This document shows, piece after piece, positions 1-62,306 of a stretch of DNA of 64,000 nucleotides (positions are counted from its first letter, which is position 1; each line of letters begins with the position of its first letter). The notes below the pieces were generated by a model, which had not been told where the DNA came from, searched no databases, and saw nothing but the letters and a program-made list of their open reading frames with translations. This DNA comes from Parcubacteria group bacterium Gr01-1014_8 (GTDB taxonomy: Bacteria; Patescibacteriota; Minisyncoccia; Phycocordibacterales; UBA2100): assembly GCA_007376385.1 (NCBI GenBank), contig VMGC01000005.1:96001-160000 (forward strand), written 5' to 3'. Position numbers and translations under genes: made by a program.

Positions 1-15
1 CCGGCAAATACAAAG

Positions 16-37
16 CCACCGGACCCCAGTCCGGTGG
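16..37. terminator. GC-rich hairpin (CCACCGGAC-ccca-GTCCGGTGG) at the window edge; possible bidirectional terminator
   Basis: 9-bp perfect stem read directly. The minus-strand side is U-rich (UUUGUAUUUG). It lies downstream of the small minus-strand ORF 66..254. Confidence 0.35.
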
Positions 38-65
38 TCGTTTACTAAAAAGAAAATAATCGGCG

Positions 66-2471: not shown

Positions 2472-3159
2472 ACCGACAGTGATTTTTGAGAACGACGATT
2501 TTCTCGTCATCAATAAACCGGCCGGGCTCATCGTGCACTCGGACGGAAGGACGATAGAGCCGTCGCTCGCCGACTGGCTCATCGCGCGCTCCCCCGCGCT
2601 ACAAGAGGTCGGCGAGCCATGGGTGTCGCCGCAAGGAGAAAAAATTGCGTGCCCTGGTCTTGTGCATCGTTTGGATAGAACAACATCGGGTGTGATGGTT
2701 GTGGCGAAAACACAGGCGATGTGGAAATACCTGCGCGCAGAATTTAAAGAGCGGCGTGTCGAAAAGAAATATCACGCATTTGTCTACAGTCATGTGGAGG
2801 GGAGTTCTGGTCGGATTGTTTCTGAAATCATGAGGTCGTCTACGCCTCCTAAAAAATGGTATGCACGGCCATGCGACGAAAGCCACAAGCGAGCAGCCAT
2901 AACGGATTGGACGCTTTTGAAAAAGCTCGAAGATAACGGCGAGCTCATTTCGTATCTCGAAGTTCAGCCTCGTACCGGCCGCACGCATCAGATACGCGTG
3001 CATCTTGCATCTATCGGGTATCCTATAGTCGCGGACCATCTGTACTCCGACAAGAAGCCACTTTTAGGATTCACGCGCCCGGCGCTTCATGCACACAGTA
3101 TTTCATTCATGCTGCCGTCAGTAGAAAACCGGGAATTTATTTGCGAGCGTTGCGAGTGA
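2461..3159 (+). CDS. RluA-family 23S rRNA/tRNA pseudouridine synthase
   Basis: Catalytic motif HRLDRTTSGVMVVAKT and RTGRTHQIRVHLA. The chosen start, MTNEPTVIFENDDFLVINKPAGL, overlaps the obg stop by 11 nt. The last 6 codons (ICERCE*) are encoded by repeat C1. Confidence 0.88.
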   Translation: MTNEPTVIFENDDFLVINKPAGLIVHSDGRTIEPSLADWLIARSPALQEVGEPWVSPQGEKIACPGLVHRLDRTTSGVMVVAKTQAMWKYLRAEFKERRVEKKYHAFVYSHVEGSSGRIVSEIMRSSTPPKKWYARPCDESHKRAAITDWTLLKKLEDNGELISYLEVQPRTGRTHQIRVHLASIGYPIVADHLYSDKKPLLGFTRPALHAHSISFMLPSVENREFICERCE

Positions 3160-3220
3160 AATGCAAAAGAGCACTTTTGTATTTCCGAGTCGAGGAGCAA
3201 ACACAGGTTCAATACCTCGG
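3137..3220 (+). repeat. Family C dyad-symmetric repeat, copy C1
   Basis: TTTGCGAGCGTTGCGAGTGAAATGCAAAAG-agca-CTTTTGTATTTCCGAGTCGAGGAGC...GGTTCAATACCTCGG. Homologous to 27115..27203 and, in reverse complement, to 61726..61813. Confidence 0.75.
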
Positions 3221-3275
3221 AGCTTGCTCCGAAGAACCTTTATAGCGCCACCACCGAAGGATTTTCGCTGATGTT

Positions 3276-9049: not shown

Positions 9050-10861
9050 TTGTGGGATGATGCGCTGATGGATTTTGGTCGCAAGTCAATAGGGGACATG
9101 CTAAACGGGATGGCTCGGTACCGAGTCCCAAAATACCAGCGCTCCTTTACCTGGGGTACAAACCAAGTCTCAGATTTTTGGAGAGACCTTTGTGAAGCAG
9201 ATGAGAGAGAAGGATTCTTTCTCGGGACCATGATATTGCATAAGGATAGAGAGGGGGTAGAGGTGGAAAATCTCAAGAATATTGTTGATGGACAACAGAG
9301 AATGACCGCCGCAAGTTTATTATTGCTCGCATGCAGGAATCACTCGTCAAGAAGGAACCGAGACAGGGCTGCTGCACTTGATCAAACTCTGATGTTTCGT
9401 GATATCGCTACTGGAAGAGCGGAAACGCTCAGACTTGAGGTCGCTCCAGACATTCTAGATGCTTTTCGTCACATGGTGACTGCTAGGCAGTGGGATGAAC
9501 AAACTTTTCCAGACGAAGTAGATGGCCGAGTCGCCAGACGAATAAAGTCTATTTATAAGTATTTCAAGCAGCAGGTAGACGAACTATCAGATGCAGAGCT
9601 CTCGTCCTTACTTAATAAATTGTTGAATTCATACTTTCTTGTGATAGAAATTGAAGATATCACACAGGCTTTTGAGCTTTTTGAACGAACAAATGCGCGA
9701 GGAACTCCGCTGAATGCAGGAGAGTTGCTCAAGAACAGACTGTTTGCAGAGGCGCAGGAGAAAGAAATTGTAGAAGGCGAATGGGAGGAGATTGTTTCTA
9801 ACTCTAATGGGATGCTACTGCGAATGTTGAAGTATTTTGCAGCTCTTAAGCACGGGCAAGAAACGGGTCGGACGGTTTTGTATCGACATCTGCGTGGTCA
9901 AGTTGAATCGGACACACCGAGCCAGTTCATCCACGATTTGAGCGCTTTCTCTTCATATTTTGGAAAGTTCTTGGACAACAAACTTCAAGCCGCACCATTT
10001 ATTGATCGAAATTCTGATAAGTCATTCGAATTTCTCTTCATTGATGAGATTGCTTTTAAAAAGTTTGGTCGCAGCATGAGTGCGATATCTCTTTTTGGTG
10101 TCTACATTGTCCTTCCCGTTGTTTTCGCTGGCCTAAAAGGGCTATCGAAATTGAAAGACAAAAGCGGATTTAGACCCGCGTTGAAAGATTTTCTAAATCT
10201 TCTAGGTACGATGGAGTGTTTCCATTTTATCAATAATCAGATATGTACACGTCCCTCGAATCGTGCCGAGTCACTATATGCAAGTAAAACAAATGTGTTG
10301 GCGACAGCGGAGACATGCGCACAGTTCAGAGAGGTAATAAAGCAGATATCAAAAGGACTCAAGGAGATAAAGGTCGCTAATAAGGAAGAGTTCCTACTTA
10401 ATTTTACTGGACTTTCATATACGAGTCCTGCAAGCGATAAGCCTCTCTTTGCATACGTCTTTGATAGATTTGAATCCTCTCCATTCGCGTCAGCAGCACC
10501 TGTAACCATATTTGATCCGTCAGCTAATTACAGCCTGAACCGCGTATTCGAAGTTGAACACATTACCCCTCGAGCAATGTGGGGCAATTTATATCCGGAA
10601 GATGATTTGGTCAACAATATCGGTAATTTACTCATCCTAACGCAGGAGACTAATAGGCTTGTAGATACCAAACCATTGCCGGATAAGATTCGAATAATGA
10701 AGGAACGAGGCTACGACAATTTAAGTACCGTTCAACAATTTTCTAAAAAGTTCGAGGATAAGGAACTCAAGTGGTTACGTCCGACAGACATAACAGAGCG
10801 ATCTGTCGCAATGGCAGCTCAAGGCTACAGTGATATTTGGGATCCATGGCCGAATGATTGA
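9050..10861 (+). CDS. GmrSD-family type IV (modification-dependent) restriction endonuclease, DUF262 + DUF1524
   Basis: N-terminal DUF262/ParB-like NTPase motifs (KYQRSFTW ... VDGQQRMTA). C-terminal DUF1524 HNH-like motifs (EVEHITPRA ... GNLLILTQETN). The gene looks AT-rich relative to its flanks by eye. Confidence 0.8.
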   Translation: MWDDALMDFGRKSIGDMLNGMARYRVPKYQRSFTWGTNQVSDFWRDLCEADEREGFFLGTMILHKDREGVEVENLKNIVDGQQRMTAASLLLLACRNHSSRRNRDRAAALDQTLMFRDIATGRAETLRLEVAPDILDAFRHMVTARQWDEQTFPDEVDGRVARRIKSIYKYFKQQVDELSDAELSSLLNKLLNSYFLVIEIEDITQAFELFERTNARGTPLNAGELLKNRLFAEAQEKEIVEGEWEEIVSNSNGMLLRMLKYFAALKHGQETGRTVLYRHLRGQVESDTPSQFIHDLSAFSSYFGKFLDNKLQAAPFIDRNSDKSFEFLFIDEIAFKKFGRSMSAISLFGVYIVLPVVFAGLKGLSKLKDKSGFRPALKDFLNLLGTMECFHFINNQICTRPSNRAESLYASKTNVLATAETCAQFREVIKQISKGLKEIKVANKEEFLLNFTGLSYTSPASDKPLFAYVFDRFESSPFASAAPVTIFDPSANYSLNRVFEVEHITPRAMWGNLYPEDDLVNNIGNLLILTQETNRLVDTKPLPDKIRIMKERGYDNLSTVQQFSKKFEDKELKWLRPTDITERSVAMAAQGYSDIWDPWPND

Positions 10862-11321
10862 TGCAGCATTAATCAAACAGAAGACAAGGTACTTACGGGA
10901 CGGCCGGGCCCCGATTCCGAAAAGTGAAAAAATCTCTCGCACGATGAGTGCGATAAGAGCAAAGAACACGAAGCCCGAGTTACTTGTTCGCAAGGTTTTC
11001 CGAAAAGTAGGAATACGCGGATATCGATTGCATTGGAATAAAGTAGCCGGACGACCGGATATTGTGTTCCCTAAGAAAAAAGTCGCTGTGTTTGTTCACG
11101 GCTGTTACTGGCACGGATGTCCACATTGCAAACTTACACTCCCGAAAACGCATCGAGCATTTTGGCGTGCAAAGTTCAAGAGAAACAAGGAAAGAGACGC
11201 TCATAAGACAAAAGACCTGCGGAAATTAGGATGGCGTGTACTTACCGTGTGGGAGCACCAAATAAAGAAAGATGCGGATCAAATCGCTGCACGCGTCGTG
11301 AAGGCTCTTCGTGACGCTTGA
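10854..11321 (+). CDS. vsr: very-short-patch-repair endonuclease Vsr
   Basis: MSAIRAKNTKPELLVRK...GRPDIVFPKKKVAVFVHGCYWHGCPHC matches the Vsr hallmark (FVDGCFWHGH). The start overlaps the GmrSD stop by 8 nt in another frame. The 3-prime end overlaps the convergent MTase gene by 80 nt. Confidence 0.85.
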   Translation: MIDAALIKQKTRYLRDGRAPIPKSEKISRTMSAIRAKNTKPELLVRKVFRKVGIRGYRLHWNKVAGRPDIVFPKKKVAVFVHGCYWHGCPHCKLTLPKTHRAFWRAKFKRNKERDAHKTKDLRKLGWRVLTVWEHQIKKDADQIAARVVKALRDA

Positions 11322-12648
11322 TGCTCTGCAAAAGTGCACGGCCTATTTCTTCAATGATTCCGACGACAAGTGCGTTACCCATGAAGAACGCTCGTTTTAC
11401 GTCGGAAATGTCGTCATATGCGGTATGGCGAGCAGGGAATTGGCATAATAACTCTAACTCTGTTGGGGTAAGTCGGCGGTATTTTCCGGACTTTGTTTTT
11501 ACAACATGCTTGAATCGCGAGGGTGCGGGCCCTCCCTCTCCTGTAATTATCGTGCGGGAAGGTTTATCCAAAGCATCCGGAAAAGTCATTGGACCCTCTG
11601 CGTAGTGATAAGTGAATCCATCTGTCCCATGGCGCTCTTCCTTTTTAGCACCCTTGAGATATTTCCACTCTTTTAGTGAGCCGTTGATAAAATATTCTTC
11701 GGCGACTTTGTGTTCCGGAAGTAGAATATCACCGAGAGTAATGAAAGGGCCACCGTATTTTGGAGTTACGCGAGCGGTTGTGATCCGACCGTCACTCATG
11801 ACCCCAGCATTCGCAAAATCTATATCGTCCGGGAACAATTGTTCAAAGTCTCTCGTTATTCTGACGGGATCATCAGCGACATCGTGTCTCGCGAATCTTG
11901 AAATTTCATCTTCGACTGCGAGTCGTTGCGCGAAAACTCCTTCTTTTGTCAGCCAATTGATCGCGTCAGTCGAACGTAGCGCATTTGCAATACCGGTTCC
12001 ATTCTTGAACGCGAGAATAAAGATCCGGCGCCTGCGCTGTGGTTTTCCGTAATCAGCTGCATTGATAACGCGCCATTCGACGACATATCCGAGGTTTGCG
12101 AGCGAAGCGAGCATGATCGCAAAATCACGACCGCGGGCAGATGCTGGGGACTTTAATAATCGGTCAACGTTCTCTAGGAACACATAGGGAGCAGAGTCCT
12201 TGTGTCCTTTTTCTTGAAGAATGCGATAGATCTGCCACCAGAGAACGCCTTTCTTTCCCTGGAGTCCCGCAGCTTGGCTCAACGTTCGTGCAACCGAATA
12301 ATCCTGACAAGGAAATCCTCCGACAAGAACATGATGGTCCGGGATGTCACCTGTTGCGACGGTCGCGATATCTTGATTACTGTGTCCTTTGCTGCCAAAA
12401 CGTGCCCGGTACACCTCGGATGCGTGCTGGCGTTTCGTTGATGGCTCCCACTGATTACTCCAGATGGTCTCGAATTTCAGACCTGCTCTCGCCGCTTCCT
12501 TTTTTGATGCTTGGTCGAGTCCGAGACGAAATCCTCCCACCCCTGCGAACAATTCAATGACCTTAAGTGGCACCGCTTGTCGATCGTCTTTTTTGAGCGT
12601 ATGTTTGGCTAGTTTCCCCATAGCTAAATCGTACCAAGGAATATCCAT
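11242..12648 (-). CDS. dcm: DNA (cytosine-5)-methyltransferase (Dcm-like, type II m5C MTase)
   Basis: Motif I ELFAGVGGFRLGL, motif IV GGFPCQDYS, motif VI VFLENVDRLL, motif VIII QRRRRIFILAF. The partner of the adjacent vsr. Confidence 0.9.
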   Translation of the reverse strand: MDIPWYDLAMGKLAKHTLKKDDRQAVPLKVIELFAGVGGFRLGLDQASKKEAARAGLKFETIWSNQWEPSTKRQHASEVYRARFGSKGHSNQDIATVATGDIPDHHVLVGGFPCQDYSVARTLSQAAGLQGKKGVLWWQIYRILQEKGHKDSAPYVFLENVDRLLKSPASARGRDFAIMLASLANLGYVVEWRVINAADYGKPQRRRRIFILAFKNGTGIANALRSTDAINWLTKEGVFAQRLAVEDEISRFARHDVADDPVRITRDFEQLFPDDIDFANAGVMSDGRITTARVTPKYGGPFITLGDILLPEHKVAEEYFINGSLKEWKYLKGAKKEERHGTDGFTYHYAEGPMTFPDALDKPSRTIITGEGGPAPSRFKHVVKTKSGKYRRLTPTELELLCQFPARHTAYDDISDVKRAFFMGNALVVGIIEEIGRALLQSIKRHEEPSRRVQRFDPHLSLFGAPTR

Positions 12649-13452
12649 TTGATCAAGATCGAGTTATCCACTGTCTGCCATATGCATAAAAAGTTCATCG
12701 AACTACTGAATATACCCGATCCAAAGATCCTGGAACCCAAAAAAGTGGGACCTAAACGCCTACAGATGGTCAACTTTGCACGAACGCTTTCTAGAGGAAC
12801 CTTAGAAAGCCCGCATGAACACAAGATTTGGAAAGTCAGGGCTTATTGGATTGGATTCCAAAAACCAGGAATTGAGACTGCTGCGGACGCGGAAACCAAT
12901 TACAAAGATGGTACTGTCGCTCCTAATCCTGACGACATGAAGCCCACTATATGGAAGTCGAATAAGATCATTAAAGCACCAGCGTCATTTGAAGAGATTT
13001 TTCACGTTTTTGAAAGACTTTTACGAAATGATGAAGAAAATGTTTTGGAGCTGCTTGCCGCCATCCTTTATAGAGATGCTTATTTGTTGGATTACGAGAT
13101 CAGTGATCAGCCGAACGCTGTCCCCGAATATAGGTTATCCCAAGATATACTTCAGGAACTTGAGAAACCGCTCTTCAGTGTTACTGGATTACCAGCTGAG
13201 GTTTATTTGAAATATTTGCAAATGATCGCATGGAATGAGGACGTCAAATATAACGCCTTAGGTTATAATATTGCGAAAGAGAAGACGGGCAGGCAGGGAA
13301 ATCTATTAACCTACACCCACTTGATTGCTGTGCTGTTAGGTAGGGCGCGATTAGCAAATTTTTGCTACGCATTTGCTCGAAGTGGAGGAGTAGCACCTAT
13401 AACGGGAATTGCTACCTGGGCAGCATTTCCTTGGCTTAGAAATGAGAAGTAA
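12649..13452 (+). CDS. hypothetical protein divergent from the m5C MTase; candidate cognate restriction endonuclease (inference only)
   Basis: 267 aa with no recognisable motif. It is transcribed divergently, with start codons abutting the MTase start, and lies inside the AT-rich defence island. REase function is inferred from the classic R/M/V arrangement. Confidence 0.45.
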   Translation: MIKIELSTVCHMHKKFIELLNIPDPKILEPKKVGPKRLQMVNFARTLSRGTLESPHEHKIWKVRAYWIGFQKPGIETAADAETNYKDGTVAPNPDDMKPTIWKSNKIIKAPASFEEIFHVFERLLRNDEENVLELLAAILYRDAYLLDYEISDQPNAVPEYRLSQDILQELEKPLFSVTGLPAEVYLKYLQMIAWNEDVKYNALGYNIAKEKTGRQGNLLTYTHLIAVLLGRARLANFCYAFARSGGVAPITGIATWAAFPWLRNEK

Positions 13453-19554: not shown

Positions 19555-19569
19555 AACACAGAAAGCAAA

Positions 19570-19599
19570 AAGCGCCCCGCCTAAAGAGGCGGGGCGCTT
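19570..19599. terminator. bidirectional rho-independent terminator hairpin (AAGCGCCCCGCC-taaaga-GGCGGGGCGCTT)
   Basis: 12-bp perfect GC-rich stem. The minus-strand side has a U-tract (UUUUGCUUUCU). It sits between the convergent genes 19027..19554 (+) and 19612..20283 (-). Confidence 0.8.
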
Positions 19600-19611
19600 C
19601 GTTTGAGATGA

Positions 19612-20283
19612 TTAAAGACCGATCTCTACTTCTGTCGAACCTTCCATCTTCGTTTTACTTCCTGCTTCTGCACTCGAACCTCCTTCTGCATGCGCCGATG
19701 TCTCGCTTTTGACGGTGGCCGGACCGACGTGAATGTCAGCTGTTCCGTCGCCGTTCACGTCGCCCGCTGTGACATTGATGTCAGCGGTACCATCGCCGCT
19801 GACGTCCCCTGCGGCGACACCTGCGCGAGCCCGGATGTTCTGGATGATGTTCTTGAGGCTTGTGTGGGCTTCTGCTGAAGCACTGCCTTTCACGTTCGTT
19901 TCGACATTGCTGAATGCGTTGATAGCAGTGTTGATGCGCGTAAGGACCGATACCGCAGCTTCCGTCTTGCCGGACGTGCTAAGTTCGTTGGCTGCTTGAA
20001 GCGCGGCTTCTGCATGCGACGAAAATTCTGCTCCCAATTCTGCAGCAACGTCAGCATCCAATTCGCCGCGGGCGCTAAGTTCTGCGGCTTCTTGCAAGCG
20101 GCGTTCGGTAACGCGTGCTTGCCAGTTCGCTTCTGCTTCGCTCGAAACCGTAAGTGCAGCACGGACGTTTTCGTTCACCGACGTTTTCATGCCGTAGAGG
20201 ACGTCTCCCGGGACAGCATTTTCGGCGGCAAAAGAGGCTCCGCCTCCAAGTGCCAAGATCACTACTAGAATGATTGCAATCAT
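19612..20283 (-). CDS. secreted/membrane-anchored Ala/Glu-rich protein (DUF5667-like)
   Basis: N-terminal TM helix followed by AVPGDVLYGMK, typical of DUF5667 N-termini as I recall them. The rest is Ala/Glu/Ser-rich repetitive sequence (GDVSGDGTADINVTAGDVNGDGTADIHV). Confidence 0.5.
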   Translation of the reverse strand: MIAIILVVILALGGGASFAAENAVPGDVLYGMKTSVNENVRAALTVSSEAEANWQARVTERRLQEAAELSARGELDADVAAELGAEFSSHAEAALQAANELSTSGKTEAAVSVLTRINTAINAFSNVETNVKGSASAEAHTSLKNIIQNIRARAGVAAGDVSGDGTADINVTAGDVNGDGTADIHVGPATVKSETSAHAEGGSSAEAGSKTKMEGSTEVEIGL

Positions 20284-20401
20284 ATTGACTAATTAACTTG
20301 TGTTACGTGTAATGACCGCCACGCGGGCGGACGAATATTGAGACGATATACGTCATTAAGTCTTACACGGTCTGTCAAGCCTATTCGGAGGGGCAAAAAG
20401 A

Positions 20402-20431
20402 AAGCGCCCCGCCTCTTTAGGCGGGGCGCTT
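20402..20431. terminator. rho-independent terminator hairpin; inverted copy of the 19570 hairpin
   Basis: AAGCGCCCCGCC-tcttta-GGCGGGGCGCTT followed by CUUUCUU on + and UUUCUUUUUG on -. Downstream of the minus-strand csp. Confidence 0.8.
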
Positions 20432-20462
20432 CTTTCTTGACCGGCACGTGGCTCGCTTACGC

Positions 20463-26421: not shown

Positions 26422-26451
26422 TCAAGAGTCTCTGCATAGAGCTCAAATCCA

Positions 26452-26491
26452 AAATACCATAATGGTGCCGGTCGGCACCATTATGGTATTT
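26452..26491. repeat. Family A palindromic element, copy A2; likely bidirectional terminator after ppsA
   Basis: AAATACCATAATGGTGCCGGTCGGCACCATTATGGTATTT is a perfect 40-nt palindrome, followed by CGTTTTTC. Confidence 0.8.
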
Positions 26492-27114: not shown

Positions 27115-27203
27115 CTTTATTGGCGAGCGTTGCGAGCGAAGCGAAAATGTATTCATTTTCATTTTCGAGCCGAGGAGCCAACATAGGGTCGAATACCCCG
27201 CGG
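27115..27203 (+). repeat. Family C dyad-symmetric repeat, copy C2
   Basis: CTTTATTGGCGAGCGTTGCGAGCGAAGCGAAAATG-tattc-ATTTTCATTTTCGAGCCGAGGAGCCAACATAGGGTCGAATACCCCGCGG. Intergenic, between two minus-strand genes. Confidence 0.8.
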
Positions 27204-27215
27204 TATGAATACCCT

Positions 27216-27581
27216 TTATTTTAAGAGCCTGTCGATAGCATCAATGATGCCTTGTGCTGATTCATCTGATTTCACTACGTAGCCGCGGATACCGAGCGCC
27301 ATTCCTTCCGCGATGTTATCCATTGAAGACACGTTGGAGGTAATGAGTACAGGCGTTTTACCCTCGCCGTATTTTTTGTTCAGTTCCTTCAGGAATTGGA
27401 GGCCGTCCATTCCAGGCATCTTGATATCAAGAAGGATGCCGTCGGGCTGTGATTCGCTCATTTTTTGCAGCCCCTCGCTTCCGTCACTCGCACATACCAC
27501 TTCGTACTCTGCGCTGTCCAGCTCTCCTTTCATGAGACTCTTGAAAGTCTCGTCATCATCGATAATAAGTATTTTCTTCAT
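27216..27581 (-). CDS. single-domain response regulator (CheY-like receiver)
   Basis: ILIIDDDE ... GILLDIKMPGMDG ... receiver fold. 121 aa. No cognate kinase is adjacent. Confidence 0.82.
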   Translation of the reverse strand: MKKILIIDDDETFKSLMKGELDSAEYEVVCASDGSEGLQKMSESQPDGILLDIKMPGMDGLQFLKELNKKYGEGKTPVLITSNVSSMDNIAEGMALGIRGYVVKSDESAQGIIDAIDRLLK

Positions 27582-50475: not shown

Positions 50476-50617
50476 ATGAATAGTATAGACGATGATTCCA
50501 AAATAATCTTACGCACTAGCGTGATGCGATAATCGTACTCCGAACATCACAAAAAGACTGACTGTGTGGGTTGGCGTTGTCGCGCTCATACTGCTGGATC
50601 GTCACTTTATCTTGCGA

Positions 50618-50692
50618 GGATAGCGAGAGAAATGCGAGTGCTTGCACTCGCATTTCCGAGCGACGCAGCAAGCAAAGGTTTGAAACCTTTCA
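50618..50692 (-). repeat. Family C-prime dyad-symmetric repeat, copy 1 (overlaps the stop codon of 50690..51226)
   Basis: CTTGCGAGGATAGCGAGAGAAATGCGAGTGC-ttg-CACTCGCATTTCCGAGCGACGCAGCAAGCAAAGGTTTGAAACCTTTCA. Perfect 13-bp inner hairpin. Confidence 0.8.
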
Positions 50693-51226
50693 TAGTTCCA
50701 CCAAAACGCTCGTTTTTATGCTGCCGTCTTTTGAAGACTCGTCATAGCGCTCGATGCGGAATCCACCTTTCTGGATAAATGCGGCGAATCTGGTTCCAGT
50801 GAGTGCATCGTTGCAGTCCACTTTGCCGAGCATTATCTTGTGATCCTCGATCTCATTCATTTCTTTGCCGGTGCAGCCCATCGCGGTACCAAGATCGTAG
50901 CGCTTCGTTGTGCCGTCCAAAGTGGACACGTCGGCCGCAATCGTCTGTTCGTTGATGCGGTAATCGTCCTCACTCTTGATCTGGGGATTCGCCTTCTCGA
51001 TGCTCCAGGTTACTTTCATGACTGTCGTTGCGTCAAGATTCCACAGTGGGAGGAGTGAACCGCCGGTGAGGAAGAAGCCGAGGTCTCCGACTATGCGGAT
51101 TGGAGGCGGTGCATCCTCCGCCGGTTGGACAGCGTTGTAATGGATGACCGAGCCAATGTAGCGGACGCCAAGAAAGAGCCCGACGATAATAATAACGATT
51201 GAAAACATTGTTAGATATCGATTCAT
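50690..51226 (-). CDS. membrane-anchored hypothetical protein
   Basis: Start trimmed to MNRYLTMFSIVIIIVGLFLGV, because the ORF-track N-terminal extension is just the translated C-prime repeat. The soluble domain contains two Cys. Confidence 0.5.
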   Translation of the reverse strand: MNRYLTMFSIVIIIVGLFLGVRYIGSVIHYNAVQPAEDAPPPIRIVGDLGFFLTGGSLLPLWNLDATTVMKVTWSIEKANPQIKSEDDYRINEQTIAADVSTLDGTTKRYDLGTAMGCTGKEMNEIEDHKIMLGKVDCNDALTGTRFAAFIQKGGFRIERYDESSKDGSIKTSVLVEL

Positions 51227-51237
51227 ATACTTATTTT

Positions 51238-51316
51238 TTGTCTTGCGAGGATAGCGAGTGAAGCGAAAGCACGCTTTCGCTTTCGAGCGTCGCAGCAAGT
51301 AAAGGTTTACCTTTCA
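51238..51316 (-). repeat. Family C-prime dyad-symmetric repeat, copy 2 (overlaps the stop codon of the XRE HTH gene)
   Basis: CTTGCGAGGATAGCGAGTGAAGCGAAAGC-acg-CTTTCGCTTTCGAGCGTCGCAGCAAGTAAAGGTTTACCTTTCA. Confidence 0.8.
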
Positions 51317-51507
51317 TATTCTAATAATTCTCCCGGCTGACAATCCAGCGCTTTGCAGATCGCCTCGAGGGTTGAAAACCGGATTGCCCGTGCTTTTCCG
51401 TTTTTTAATATAGAAATATTGGCCATCGTGATGCCTACCTTTTCCGTAAGCTCGGTAACGCTCATCTTCCGCTTGGCGAGCATGACATCTAAATTGACGA
51501 TTATCAT
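51307..51507 (-). CDS. XRE-family (Cro/C1-type, YozG-like) HTH transcriptional regulator
   Basis: 66 aa. MSVTELTEKVGITMANISILKNGKARAIRFSTLEAICKALDCQPGELLEY is a canonical HTH_XRE. Confidence 0.8.
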   Translation of the reverse strand: MIIVNLDVMLAKRKMSVTELTEKVGITMANISILKNGKARAIRFSTLEAICKALDCQPGELLEYER

Positions 51508-52704: not shown

Positions 52705-52740
52705 CTTCACGATTGTTTAAGACTTTTGAAAATGCTAGGT

Positions 52741-52870
52741 TCTTGCGGTGATGTTGACCATCCATTCGATACCAAATTTTTCGGTGAGCATGCCGAACGT
52801 GTCACCCCGCGGTAGTTGAGGATGGGAGCCTGACTTCACCAATCCCGTCACCGACGCACAATCGGCTCAA
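52741..52870 (-). pseudogene. 3-prime remnant of a VOC/PhnB-like gene (paralog of 55595..56023)
   Basis: Minus-strand translation gives ...GDTFGMLTEKFGIEWMVNITAR*, aligning with the C-terminus ...GSYFGMFRDKYGIEWMVEFPAAK* of the intact gene. Upstream similarity decays quickly. Confidence 0.5.
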
Positions 52871-53719: not shown

Positions 53720-53789
53720 GAAGAAAAGTATATCACCCCTACCGCCACACGAACGGCTGGCGTTTTCCTGCGCGACGAGCTCTAAATTA

Positions 53790-53860
53790 CGACTTTTTTG
53801 CGGTGATGTTGACCATCCGTTTCGTTCCGAATTTGTCGGTGAGCATGCCGAACGTGTCAC
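53790..53860 (-). pseudogene. second 3-prime remnant of a VOC/PhnB-like gene
   Basis: Minus-strand translation gives GDTFGMLTDKFGTKRMVNITAK, about 80% nucleotide identity to the 52741 remnant. Confidence 0.45.
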
Positions 53861-53932
53861 CCGCCGCGACTTATCCAAAGGGACGACAGGTGCGATGCCT
53901 GACGAGAGCTTGTGCTATAGTGTGGCCATCAT

Positions 53933-55444: not shown

Positions 55445-55594
55445 GCTCTGATTGTATCAGAAGTTCGAACGTCAACTGCCATCCAAAAAAGAATGGTTTT
55501 GTTAAGAGACAAAATCACGTGCTCCTCTGTGTCTCCAATCTTCGAACCTTCTTTACTGCCAATAGAGTGTTTGTACCTCTATAAGCCTATTAAG

Positions 55595-56023
55595 TTATTT
55601 AGCGGCTGGAAACTCAACCATCCACTCGATACCATATTTGTCTCGAAACATGCCGAAATAGGAACCCCAAGGGCTATTAGCCATAGGCATCTCTACAGTG
55701 CCACCTGCCGAAAGCCCGTTGAATATTAGTTCTGCTTCTTCCTTACTCTCTGTACTGACCAAAATTTTACTTCGATTTTCGTTTTCATTCACTTTACCCA
55801 TAAACGCAGGTACGTCATTGGCCATCAACACGTTACTTTTACCGATGGGTAAAGTGATGAGCATAATTTTCTCTGCCTCGGTGTCTGACACTGGAAATTC
55901 TGGACTCGCTAGATCTTTGAAACGAGTAATCTTTGTAAAATCACCCCCAAATATTGATTTATAAAATGTAAACGCTTCTTCAGCATTGCCGTTGAAGTTA
56001 ATCCAAGGATTTATCGTTGTCAC
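55595..56023 (-). CDS. VOC-family PhnB-like protein
   Basis: INPWINFNGNAEEAFTFYKSIFGG...ITLPIGKS...GTVEMPMANSPWGSYFGMFRDKYGIEWMV is the canonical PhnB/3-demethylubiquinone-methyltransferase-like VOC fold. Confidence 0.75.
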   Translation of the reverse strand: MTTINPWINFNGNAEEAFTFYKSIFGGDFTKITRFKDLASPEFPVSDTEAEKIMLITLPIGKSNVLMANDVPAFMGKVNENENRSKILVSTESKEEAELIFNGLSAGGTVEMPMANSPWGSYFGMFRDKYGIEWMVEFPAAK

Positions 56024-59852: not shown

Positions 59853-59862
59853 TCCGTATACC

Positions 59863-59900
59863 GTATACCTTAATGGTGCCGGTCGGCACCCTTAAGGTAC
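59863..59900. repeat. Family A palindromic element, copy A3 (imperfect), after hpf
   Basis: GTATACCTTAATGGTGCCGGTCGGCACCCTTAAGGTAC. Confidence 0.75.
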
Positions 59901-61512: not shown

Positions 61513-61725
61513 ACCGTGAGGCTATATTTATTCGAAGGCCGGTCTGGAGCGCGCGAAGCAATGCTGTGCGCTTGCACTCCGACCGGCCTTGCGCTCGCAA
61601 ACACCCTCCCAGGGTTTGCGCGCGATCCACTATGAGAAAGTATATAGCCAATAAAGGGTATACATACCGGCGGGGCAAACCCCGCCATGAGGAACGCGCT
61701 TCGCGCATCCTCCCTAGCCGGCAAG

Positions 61726-61813
61726 CCGCGGGGTATTCGACCCTATGTTGGTTCCTCGGCTCGGAAATGAACATGAGTACACGTTCATTTCACTCGCAAC
61801 GCTCGCCAATAAA
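61726..61813 (-). repeat. Family C dyad-symmetric repeat, copy C3 (reverse complement)
   Basis: The reverse complement reads TTTATTGGCGAGCGTTGCGAGTGAAATGAAC-gtgtactcat-GTTCATTTCCGAGCCGAGGAACCAACATAGGGTCGAATACCCCGCGG. It lies in the large intergenic region upstream of def. Confidence 0.8.
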
Positions 61814-62262: not shown

Positions 62263-62306
62263 CTAAATACCTTAGTAGTGCCGGTCGGCACTACTAAGGT
62301 ATTTAG
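62263..62306. repeat. Family A palindromic element, copy A4
   Basis: CTAAATACCTTAGTAGTGCCGGTCGGCACTACTAAGGTATTTAG is a perfect 44-nt palindrome. Confidence 0.8.

Follow-up and report, generated by a model that had tools for sequence, protein, structure and literature searches.

Gene-less hairpin repeats at gene ends in a Patescibacteria genome are insertions, probably of a non-autonomous element of the IS200/IS605 kind

Are the short dyad-symmetric repeats that lie at the ends of several genes in one stretch of Parcubacteria group bacterium Gr01-1014_8 fixed signals of the host, or did they arrive there as mobile DNA? The stretch (64 kb of contig VMGC01000005.1, hereafter the window) had been described in an earlier note as carrying five copies of an intergenic element with a common frame, by implication a stationary regulatory one. 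All five were recognized again by reading and by alignment. The frame pattern GCGAGSRTWGCGAGNGAAN{10,40}TTYCGAGY matches five sites in the window, precisely these copies, and has no match in 100 dinucleotide-preserving shuffles of it. With the adjoining source contig, 84 kb of this genome were covered; a covariance model found nothing beyond the five copies, either in the window or over the 20 kb of contig that flank it on either side. The copies fall into subtype A (3137, 27115, and 61813 as the reverse complement) and subtype B (50618 and 51238), corresponding to the families C and C-prime of the earlier note. The positions given there were right, but covered only part of each copy and ended inside a right-end hairpin (P3); P3 itself, the outermost helix (P1), which covaries too, and the true ends had been missed. 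The five copies are mobile DNA inserted at these places, and in one case the insertion interrupts the gene rluA. Each copy is probably a non-autonomous transposable element of the IS200/IS605 kind, resembling the palindrome-associated transposable elements (PATEs).

The insertion in rluA can be read directly. The product of this gene ends in ...REFICERCE*, its last residues being encoded inside copy 1, as had been noticed before, whereas its closest homologues (65-67% identity) end in ...F(I/V/T)APLPxDFxx. The DNA directly 3' of copy 1 reads A GCG CCA CCA CCG AAG GAT TTT CGC TGA. Deletion of 3141-3243 in silico yields ...REFIAPPPKDFR* (EFIAPPPKDFR), an ending that agrees with the alignment of the family at its almost invariant positions A, P, P, D and F. 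This restoration of the rluA end overturns the view of a stationary intergenic element. Short-read contigs of the same organism terminate within copies 1 and 3, as a repeat would lead one to expect.

A second case comes from relatives of the element. A single scan of 185,579 species genomes returned 19 loci with 15 true copies, all in metagenome-assembled genomes of the candidate phyla radiation (CPR, or Patescibacteria), namely Saccharibacteria, Paceibacterota/Parcubacteria, Kaiserbacteria, Berkelbacteria and an unclassified genome of the Patescibacteria group. Joint Genome Institute (JGI) metagenomes added about ten copies, for a total of about 25 distinct ones; viral contigs gave no match, nor did plasmids searched by blastn. 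The neighbourhoods of these relatives were read as 8-kb loci, numbered with the prefix L. At three Kaiserbacteria loci, two from one genome (L013 and L050) and one a diverged relative (L039), a 2,3-dehydratase-like gene lies on one side of the element and a Gfo/Idh/MocA gene on the other. The reading frame of the former runs through the entire element, about 25 residues past the point where homology to EvaA stops, and removal of the element recreates a CTATGA stop/start overlap (ATGA) at all three loci. A degenerate relative of the inner core, CCGAG-T-GAAAAGAAAAC...GTTTTCTTTT-TTGAGG, lacking P1 and scoring 25 bits, was also seen on the minus strand of L002 (6422-6454).

What, then, does the element consist of? 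It is gene-less, 76-158 nt long, and made up nearly entirely of a left-end and a right-end hairpin. From 5' to 3' a flanking pentamer is followed by P1, an internal loop, a GCGAG/CGAGC helix, a bulge, the inner hairpin P2, then P3 and a terminal motif. P1 has 5 bp (TTTGC/GCAAA, TTGGC/GCCAA or CTTGC/GCAAG). The purine-rich internal loop sets GAGCGTT against CGAGGA in subtype A and GAGGATA against GACGCA in subtype B. GCGAG pairs with CGAGC as G-C, C-G, G·A, A·G and G-C, that is, with tandem G·A pairs, and the bulge after this helix is one base of any identity. P2 comprises 10-13 bp closed by an invariant GAA/TTC. P3 starts 2-3 nt after the core, has a conserved base (AAAGG/CCTTT-like) and a variable interior, and the element ends in (C)AT. 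A third subtype, A', combines the subtype-A core with a YTAC flank and the end GGTTTAC. Copy 3, which lies between two divergent genes, def and a 91-aa open reading frame (ORF), carries three additional GC-rich hairpins between P3 and the terminal hairpin (61672-61727): CGGC-TT-GCCG, GAGGATGCGCG-AA-GCGCGTTCCTC and GGCGGGG-TTT-GCCCCGCC. Extra hairpins resembling these occur in the L007 and L044 copies, which suggests that the element can hold short cargo or nested inserts.

The fold is a conserved single-strand secondary structure with compensatory changes, as the earlier note had proposed from the inner hairpin. Over an alignment of 19 copies, 96% of cells are in standard pairs and 10 of 18 pairs are changed on both sides, values reached by none of 500 shuffles; sliding the 3' partners by 1-3 columns lowers pairing to 29-47%. 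RNAalifold, which that note had suggested as a check, returned the same structure from the alignment alone. The inner hairpin does differ in sequence between copies while keeping its pairing, but this pairing is not always perfect: one C·A and several G·T pairs occur in the copy at 27115, and a single G·T in each of those at 3137 and 61813. P1 covaries as well, and so do the P3 stems (GGT/ACC, GTC/GAC, GGC/GCC, GAT/ATC, GTT/AAC, GAG/CTC); helices thus vary in concert while the loops are invariant across phyla. The stems of the 25 distinct copies, which also served for the end motifs below, contain 16 G·T/T·G wobbles and 6 A·C/C·A, and the displayed (top) strand is therefore the folding strand.

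The ends are equally telling. No terminal inverted repeats are present, the left ends (TTGGCGAG or CTTGCGAG) being non-complementary to the right ends (...CCTTTAT or ...CTTTCAT). The pentamer at the left flank varies. It is TTTAT in 11 copies, elsewhere TCTAT, CTTAT, GCTAT, TTTGT or TTCGT, and in subtype A' TTTAC, CTTAC, CCTAC or ATTAC, so that the left junction reads (T/C)(T/C)TAT or YTAC in about 21 of the 25 copies; the exceptions are L002, L016 and L031, together with two copies that have TTTGT/TTCGT. The right end is fixed within each subtype as CCTTTAT, GGTTTAC, CTTTCAT or TTCAC, its first T's belonging to the P3 stem. Subtypes B and A' have different pentamers on the two sides, such as TCTAT versus TTCAT and CCTAC versus TTTAC; hence the right pentamer is encoded by the element and no target-site duplication was made. 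Subtype A has TTTAT on both sides and is uninformative on this point, leaving two of the three subtypes clearly without duplication. The left pentamer thus behaves like a transposon-adjacent motif (TAM) and the right one like a transposon-encoded motif (TEM). Five of the six testable features of PATE-like elements were found, namely absence of terminal inverted repeats, absence of target-site duplication, a TAM, a TEM and hairpins of one strand at both ends. TAM-directed insertion, a related end pentamer, one-strand hairpins and lack of duplication are the hallmarks of IS200/IS605 single-strand transposons.

The same motifs would explain why surviving copies sit at gene ends. The target TTTAT is ATAAA on the other strand, with a stop codon inside it. 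Read on the opposite strand, the end variants TTTAT, TTTAC, TTCAT and TTCAC become ATAAA, GTAAA, ATGAA and GTGAA, all with TAA or TGA at the same positions, and insertion at the stop of a converging gene would therefore regenerate the stop. In this way the TEM of copy 2 provides the TAA of a minus-strand response-regulator gene, and that of copy 4 the TGA of the minus-strand gene 50690-51226. A helix-turn-helix (HTH) gene on the minus strand (51307-51507) now terminates inside P3 of copy 5. The claim that three copies overlap stop codons is borne out, since the stops of the minus-strand genes 27216-27581, 50690-51226 and 51307-51507 fall within copies 2, 4 and 5. Insertions at ATGA overlaps, as at L050, would preserve both signals, and other intragenic insertions would mostly be lost. 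The positions of all parts are collected in Table 1.

Table 1. Positions, in the window, of the five copies, of the parts of copy 1 and of the neighbouring insertion sequence (a caret marks the presumed cut site)
Feature	Position	Strand	Remarks
TTTAT target motif (TAM-like), left flank of copy 1	3136..3140	+	within rluA codons ...GAA TTT AT
Copy 1, subtype A, 103 nt, inside rluA 3' end	3141..3243	+	boundary ambiguous within repeated TTTAT
Core composite hairpin, copy 1	3140..3201	+	alignment, covariation, RNAalifold
P1, copy 1	3140-3144 with 3197-3201	+	
Purine-rich internal loop, copy 1	3145-3151 and 3191-3196	+	
GCGAG/CGAGC helix with tandem G·A, copy 1	3152-3156 with 3186-3190	+	
Bulge, copy 1	3157	+	
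P2, copy 1	3158-3185	+	
Right-end hairpin P3, copy 1, AGGTTC...GAACCT enclosing CGGAGC-TT-GCTCCG	3205..3239	+	
Element-encoded 3' terminal motif TTTAT (TEM-like), copy 1	3239..3243	+	right-end motif constant per subtype
Displaced original rluA 3' end, (I)APPPKDFR plus TGA stop, beyond the reach of translation	3244..3271	+	
Copy 2, subtype A, 99 nt	27121..27219	+	TAM TTTAT 27116-27120; TEM TTTAT 27215-27219
Copy 3, subtype A, 158 nt	61651..61808	-	TAM 61809-61813
Copy 4, subtype B, 83 nt	50611..50693	+	TAM TTTAT 50606-50610; TEM TTCAT 50689-50693
Copy 5, subtype B, 76 nt	51242..51317	+	TAM TTTGT 51237-51241; TEM TTCAT 51313-51317
Right end of resident IS200-family insertion sequence, ...CCACCGGAC-CCCA-GTCCGGTGG-TCG-TTTAC^	1..45	+	

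How closely are the relatives alike? Outside the tip of P2, the core of copy 4 is identical to that of a Kaiserbacteria copy, and P2 variants and near-identical subfamilies are common to different phyla. The orthologous copies of L050 and L039 share 72 of 75 positions (96%), compared with about 75% overall and 47-56% at third codon positions for the flanking genes. All-against-all BLASTP over the 25 loci revealed no recurrent neighbour or cargo gene beyond the orthologous loci.

Which enzyme might move such an element? A gene with a Y1_Tnp domain (PF01797), tnpA (L062:8092-8547), ends 27 nt before the first base of the window, 3.6 kb from copy 1. Its 152-aa product has the HUH motif HVHF and a catalytic-type C-terminal Y in RRYIKHQ, and is 34% identical to IS200 TnpA. 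The gene belongs to an IS200-family insertion sequence (IS) resident in this genome, which spans window 1-45 plus L062:8000-8618. The family is widespread in metagenomes, with 876 homologues, the top 120 of which are 77-92% identical and lie mostly on contigs below 2 kb. From four independent insertions its ends were read as CTAT^AAACC-(CCYCCRGC...GCYGGRG) on the left, including the flank, and (CCACCRGNC...GNCYGGTGG)-TCG-TTTAC^ (or GGTTAT^) on the right. The resident IS and the repeats thus have flank and end motifs of one class, and in both the left hairpin adjoins the cut site; their hairpin sequences, however, are not shared. A blastn search with the ends of the resident IS over the collected sequences found neither similarity to the repeats nor mini-copies, and in four other genomes bearing this IS family no repeat lies within 20 kb of it. 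A tblastn search with IS608 and IS200 TnpA and a CPR TnpA recovered only one gene, that in L062/L063. The resident tnpA is the only trans-acting candidate transposase seen.

From the insertions, the anatomy of the ends, the fold, its strand asymmetry and the Y1 gene nearby, we infer a single-strand mechanism of the following kind. When the top strand becomes single-stranded, for example during replication, it would fold into the composite hairpin of P1, loop, GCGAG·CGAGC, bulge and P2, and into the second hairpin P3. A Y1 (HUH) transposase supplied in trans would cut 3' of the flanking TTTAT-like pentamer and 3' of the terminal TTTAT, TTCAT, TTCAC or TTTAC, releasing a single-stranded circle and leaving a donor resealed without a scar, and the circle would then integrate at a new place, again 3' of a TTTAT-like pentamer. 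The surface that the transposase recognizes and the DNA-guide region may be provided by the purines that are conserved and unpaired, by the helix with tandem G·A and by the bulged base. For copy 1 the predicted donor joint is GAATTTAT^AGCGCC and the predicted circle junction CCTTTAT^TTGCGAG. As k-mers, the predicted donor joints read GGGAATTTAT^AGCGCCACC and GGCCTTTAT^TTTAAGAGCC, and the circle junctions GAACCTTTAT^TTGCGAGCG and ACCTTTCAT^CTTGCGAGG.

Several observations weigh against this assignment to the IS200/IS605 kind. The sixth PATE-like feature, a match between the ends and those of some TnpA-encoding element of this genome, was absent over the 84 kb covered: the hairpins of the resident IS have other sequences than the repeats. 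Transposase genes are missing from every 8-kb locus that carries the repeats, and the patterns used detected no autonomous element with this left end in the 185,579 species genomes or the JGI metagenomes. The hairpin at the left end bears no resemblance to that at the right, whereas ends of the IS608 type resemble each other and match those of their autonomous partner. The cut sites fall 2-3 nt from the P3 stem, or inside it, on the right and at the foot of P1 on the left. GATAG of the subtype-B loop could pair with CTATC at the junction; subtypes A and B share the same TAM despite different internal loops, and no covariation between a guide and the TAM or TEM could be demonstrated. Orientation relative to GC skew (13:7) is not significantly biased. 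Finally, the conservation looks like that of an RNA (invariant loops, covarying helices, an ortholog 96% identical) and exceeds that expected of a neutral insertion; it could reflect transposase constraint together with gene conversion or horizontal transfer, or an RNA function of the folded strand.

This last pattern raises the question of whether the element, though mobile, keeps its core for the sake of an encoded RNA, either an omega-RNA-like scaffold for a TnpB-type nuclease acting in trans or another small RNA, which we consider unlikely. Invariant purine-rich loops, tandem G·A pairs and covarying helices over Saccharibacteria, Paceibacteria, Kaiserbacteria and Berkelbacteria are the pattern of a functional RNA; the wobbles point to the top strand; identity of the orthologous copies reaches 96%, compared with about 50% at synonymous sites; the position of a scaffold relative to the right end would be compatible; and PATEs, according to a published report, "often encode omega RNAs" that are used in trans (PMC10055086). 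Yet neither a TnpB nor an IscB gene was seen in the 84 kb of source contig or at any locus. The smallest copies, at 76 nt, are shorter than known TnpB scaffolds, which measure roughly 100 nt or more. No Rfam family matched, IS605-associated motifs included, no conserved promoter is evident, and gene conversion among copies with transposase constraint could likewise account for the conservation. That loops and helices are kept by purifying selection for an RNA function, the RNA riding on a CPR-wide mini-transposon or exapted from one and serving as an unusually small guide scaffold of a TnpB-like or another effector, or as a structured RNA useful to the host, is in our estimate similarly improbable; if true, it would represent a new RNA class in very small genomes, beyond transposon ends.

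The remaining explanations do away with a transposon of this kind. It is very doubtful that the folded core is an attC-like site for a site-specific recombinase and the copies gene-less cassettes at secondary sites. P1, the unpaired loop, the short helix with its one-base bulge and the variable hairpin do parallel attC, the fold is strand-specific, and one small gene lies enclosed between copies 4 and 5; but the boxes RYYYAAC/GTTRRRY are absent, no integrase is present among the scanned proteins, and the copies are dispersed rather than arrayed beside one, with loops conserved in sequence. Moreover, the junctions of subtype B share at most 2 nt (TCTAT versus TTCAT), which excludes the identical crossover region of 6-8 bp required by tyrosine recombinases. 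We regard as highly improbable the proposal that the copies are cis-acting elements of the host (terminators, stabilizers of mRNA 3' ends or translational-coupling modules) spread by duplication rather than transposition. They do lie at gene ends and operon junctions, the orthologous copy is strongly conserved, and at L050/L039 the element supplies the AAAGG and ATG context of the downstream gene. Against this, one copy truncates rluA, the copies point either way with respect to the flanking genes, neither strand has a T-run after the hairpins, near-identical subfamilies span phyla, and a terminator would have no use for the specific motifs of flank and end. Scarcely credible is a classical miniature inverted-repeat transposable element (MITE), that is, a deletion derivative of a DDE-transposase IS with terminal inverted repeats and a target-site duplication. 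The copies are small, gene-less and multiple, and TTTAT on both sides of subtype A could be read as a 5-bp duplication; the left end TTGGCGAG compared with the complemented right end ATAAAGGG has no terminal inverted repeats, and the differing flank pentamers of subtypes B and A' contradict a duplication. The earlier note had named such repeats and duplications as the marks of a known IS or MITE; with neither present, the element appears to have moved in the IS200/IS605 manner instead.

The non-autonomous, PATE-like transposon therefore remains our favoured identification, and we file the element as what would be a new, CPR-specific, non-autonomous family within a known kind of transposon. That it belongs to no recognized class had been suspected before and holds after wider comparison with Rfam families, MITEs, repetitive extragenic palindromic (REP) sequences and REPINs, attC sites, and tandem interspaced guide RNA (TIGR) arrays and bridge RNAs. 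A gathering-threshold scan of the window with Rfam found only tRNA-Asn, E-value scans of copies 1, 4 and 5 gave chance-level matches only, and a literature search returned neither a description of the element nor a match to strings of its core. Inspection also dismissed k-turns, box C/D motifs, hammerhead and other small ribozymes, and loop E, as their consensus sequences are absent and GCGAG/CGAGC is a plain helix with tandem G·A.

The window holds other repeats and clusters. A second hairpin family (26450-26489, 59861-59900, 62263-62302) consists of near-perfect palindromes of about 36 nt, ATACCWTARTRGTGCC-GGTC-GGCACYAYTAWGGTAT, each just 3' of a plus-strand gene, with covarying stems and an invariant GGTC loop. 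They may represent either a family of terminators or a further mobile hairpin. The minus-strand gene 19612-20283 is flanked by two GC-rich hairpins, AAAGCGCCCCGCC-loop-GGCGGGGCGCTT, at 19569-19603 and 20401-20435, their loops being mutual reverse complements. Three similar 79-nt stretches (52729-52807, 53784-53862 and 55589-55667; 62-84% identity), found where neighbouring minus-strand ORFs end, probably represent the ends of paralogous genes and not a repeat element. A defence-type cluster at about 9050-12650 comprises a GmrSD-family restriction endonuclease, a Vsr-like endonuclease and a C-5 cytosine methylase.

What would a gene-less transposon mean for these bacteria? Genomes of CPR/Patescibacteria, at about 1 Mb, are usually called repeat-poor, and here five copies lie within 64 kb. 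The element truncates a housekeeping gene, rewrites several gene ends and is nearly unchanged between CPR phyla. It may serve as a marker for horizontal exchange among uncultured symbionts, and as a compact natural substrate for learning how Y1 transposases read folded DNA. Its copies are a source of assembly breaks and of mis-called gene ends in metagenome-assembled genomes. The very slow evolution of the orthologous copy hints that some copies may have gained a function.

How, finally, does the element compare with known systems? With TIGR stem-loop arrays and IS110 bridge RNAs it shares hairpins with internal loops and presence in CPR bacteria; in those systems the loops are variable guides, and arrays of units adjoin the gene of a Nop-domain or DEDD protein (PMC12045711), whereas here the loops are invariant, the copies solitary and dispersed, and no Nop or DEDD gene adjoins them, so that both candidates were rejected. 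REP and REPIN sequences, with their REP-associated tyrosine transposases (RAYTs), are likewise short intergenic hairpin repeats tied to an enzyme of the Y1 family. They too were rejected: GTAG is absent, the arms are not inverted copies of each other, as both carry CGAG on one strand and pair via G·A, the ends are defined pentamers, one insertion lies in a coding region, and the Y1 gene in the vicinity is part of a multi-copy IS that has ends of its own. The likeness to attC extends to a strand-specific fold, a paired base, an unpaired spacer, a bulged base, a variable tip and a position at gene 3' ends, but the R''/R' consensus, the array, the integrase and an identical crossover core are lacking, and the loops are conserved in sequence.

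The resemblance to IS608 and ISDra2, which are autonomous and move by single-strand peel-and-paste with a Y1 HUH TnpA, includes target-specific insertion without duplication and strand-specific subterminal hairpins with an extrahelical base. These elements carry a transposase gene and the repeats do not; IS608 is cut 19 nt 5' and 10 nt 3' of near-identical hairpins by means of 4-nt DNA guides, whereas the repeats are cut at, or within 3 nt of, the hairpin feet. The resident IS, in the same genome, has a flank (CTAT^) and an end (TTTAC^) of the same class and a left hairpin that starts 3 nt from the cut, and its right hairpin has the stem ACCGG/CCGGT, which is met again in P3 of the A' copies. 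Its hairpins (CCYCCRGC.../CCACCRGNC...) differ from the GCGAG core and AAAGG/CCTTT P3 of the window copies.

IS605-family elements of Geobacillus stearothermophilus have experimentally established motifs, TAM TTTAT and TEM TTCAC for ISGst2 and TAM TTCAT for ISGst5 (Meers et al., 2023, PMC10055086), and that genome also has gene-less elements, PATE-like or with an omega RNA only, that are moved in trans by a single TnpA (PMC10055086). The CPR repeats differ from the PATE-like ISGst elements in that no autonomous partner with matching ends was found, their end hairpins are dissimilar, the left end is a long composite hairpin whose closing helix P1 starts at the cut site, and the family is confined to CPR bacteria, being conserved over several of their phyla. 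Like the ISGst elements, they are inserted 3' of a T-rich pentamer and end in a related one, drawing on the same motifs (TTTAT, TTCAC and TTCAT), with one-strand hairpins at both ends; and like the PATE-like members, they are gene-less, multi-copy, free of inverted terminal repeats and target duplication, and presumably mobilized in trans.

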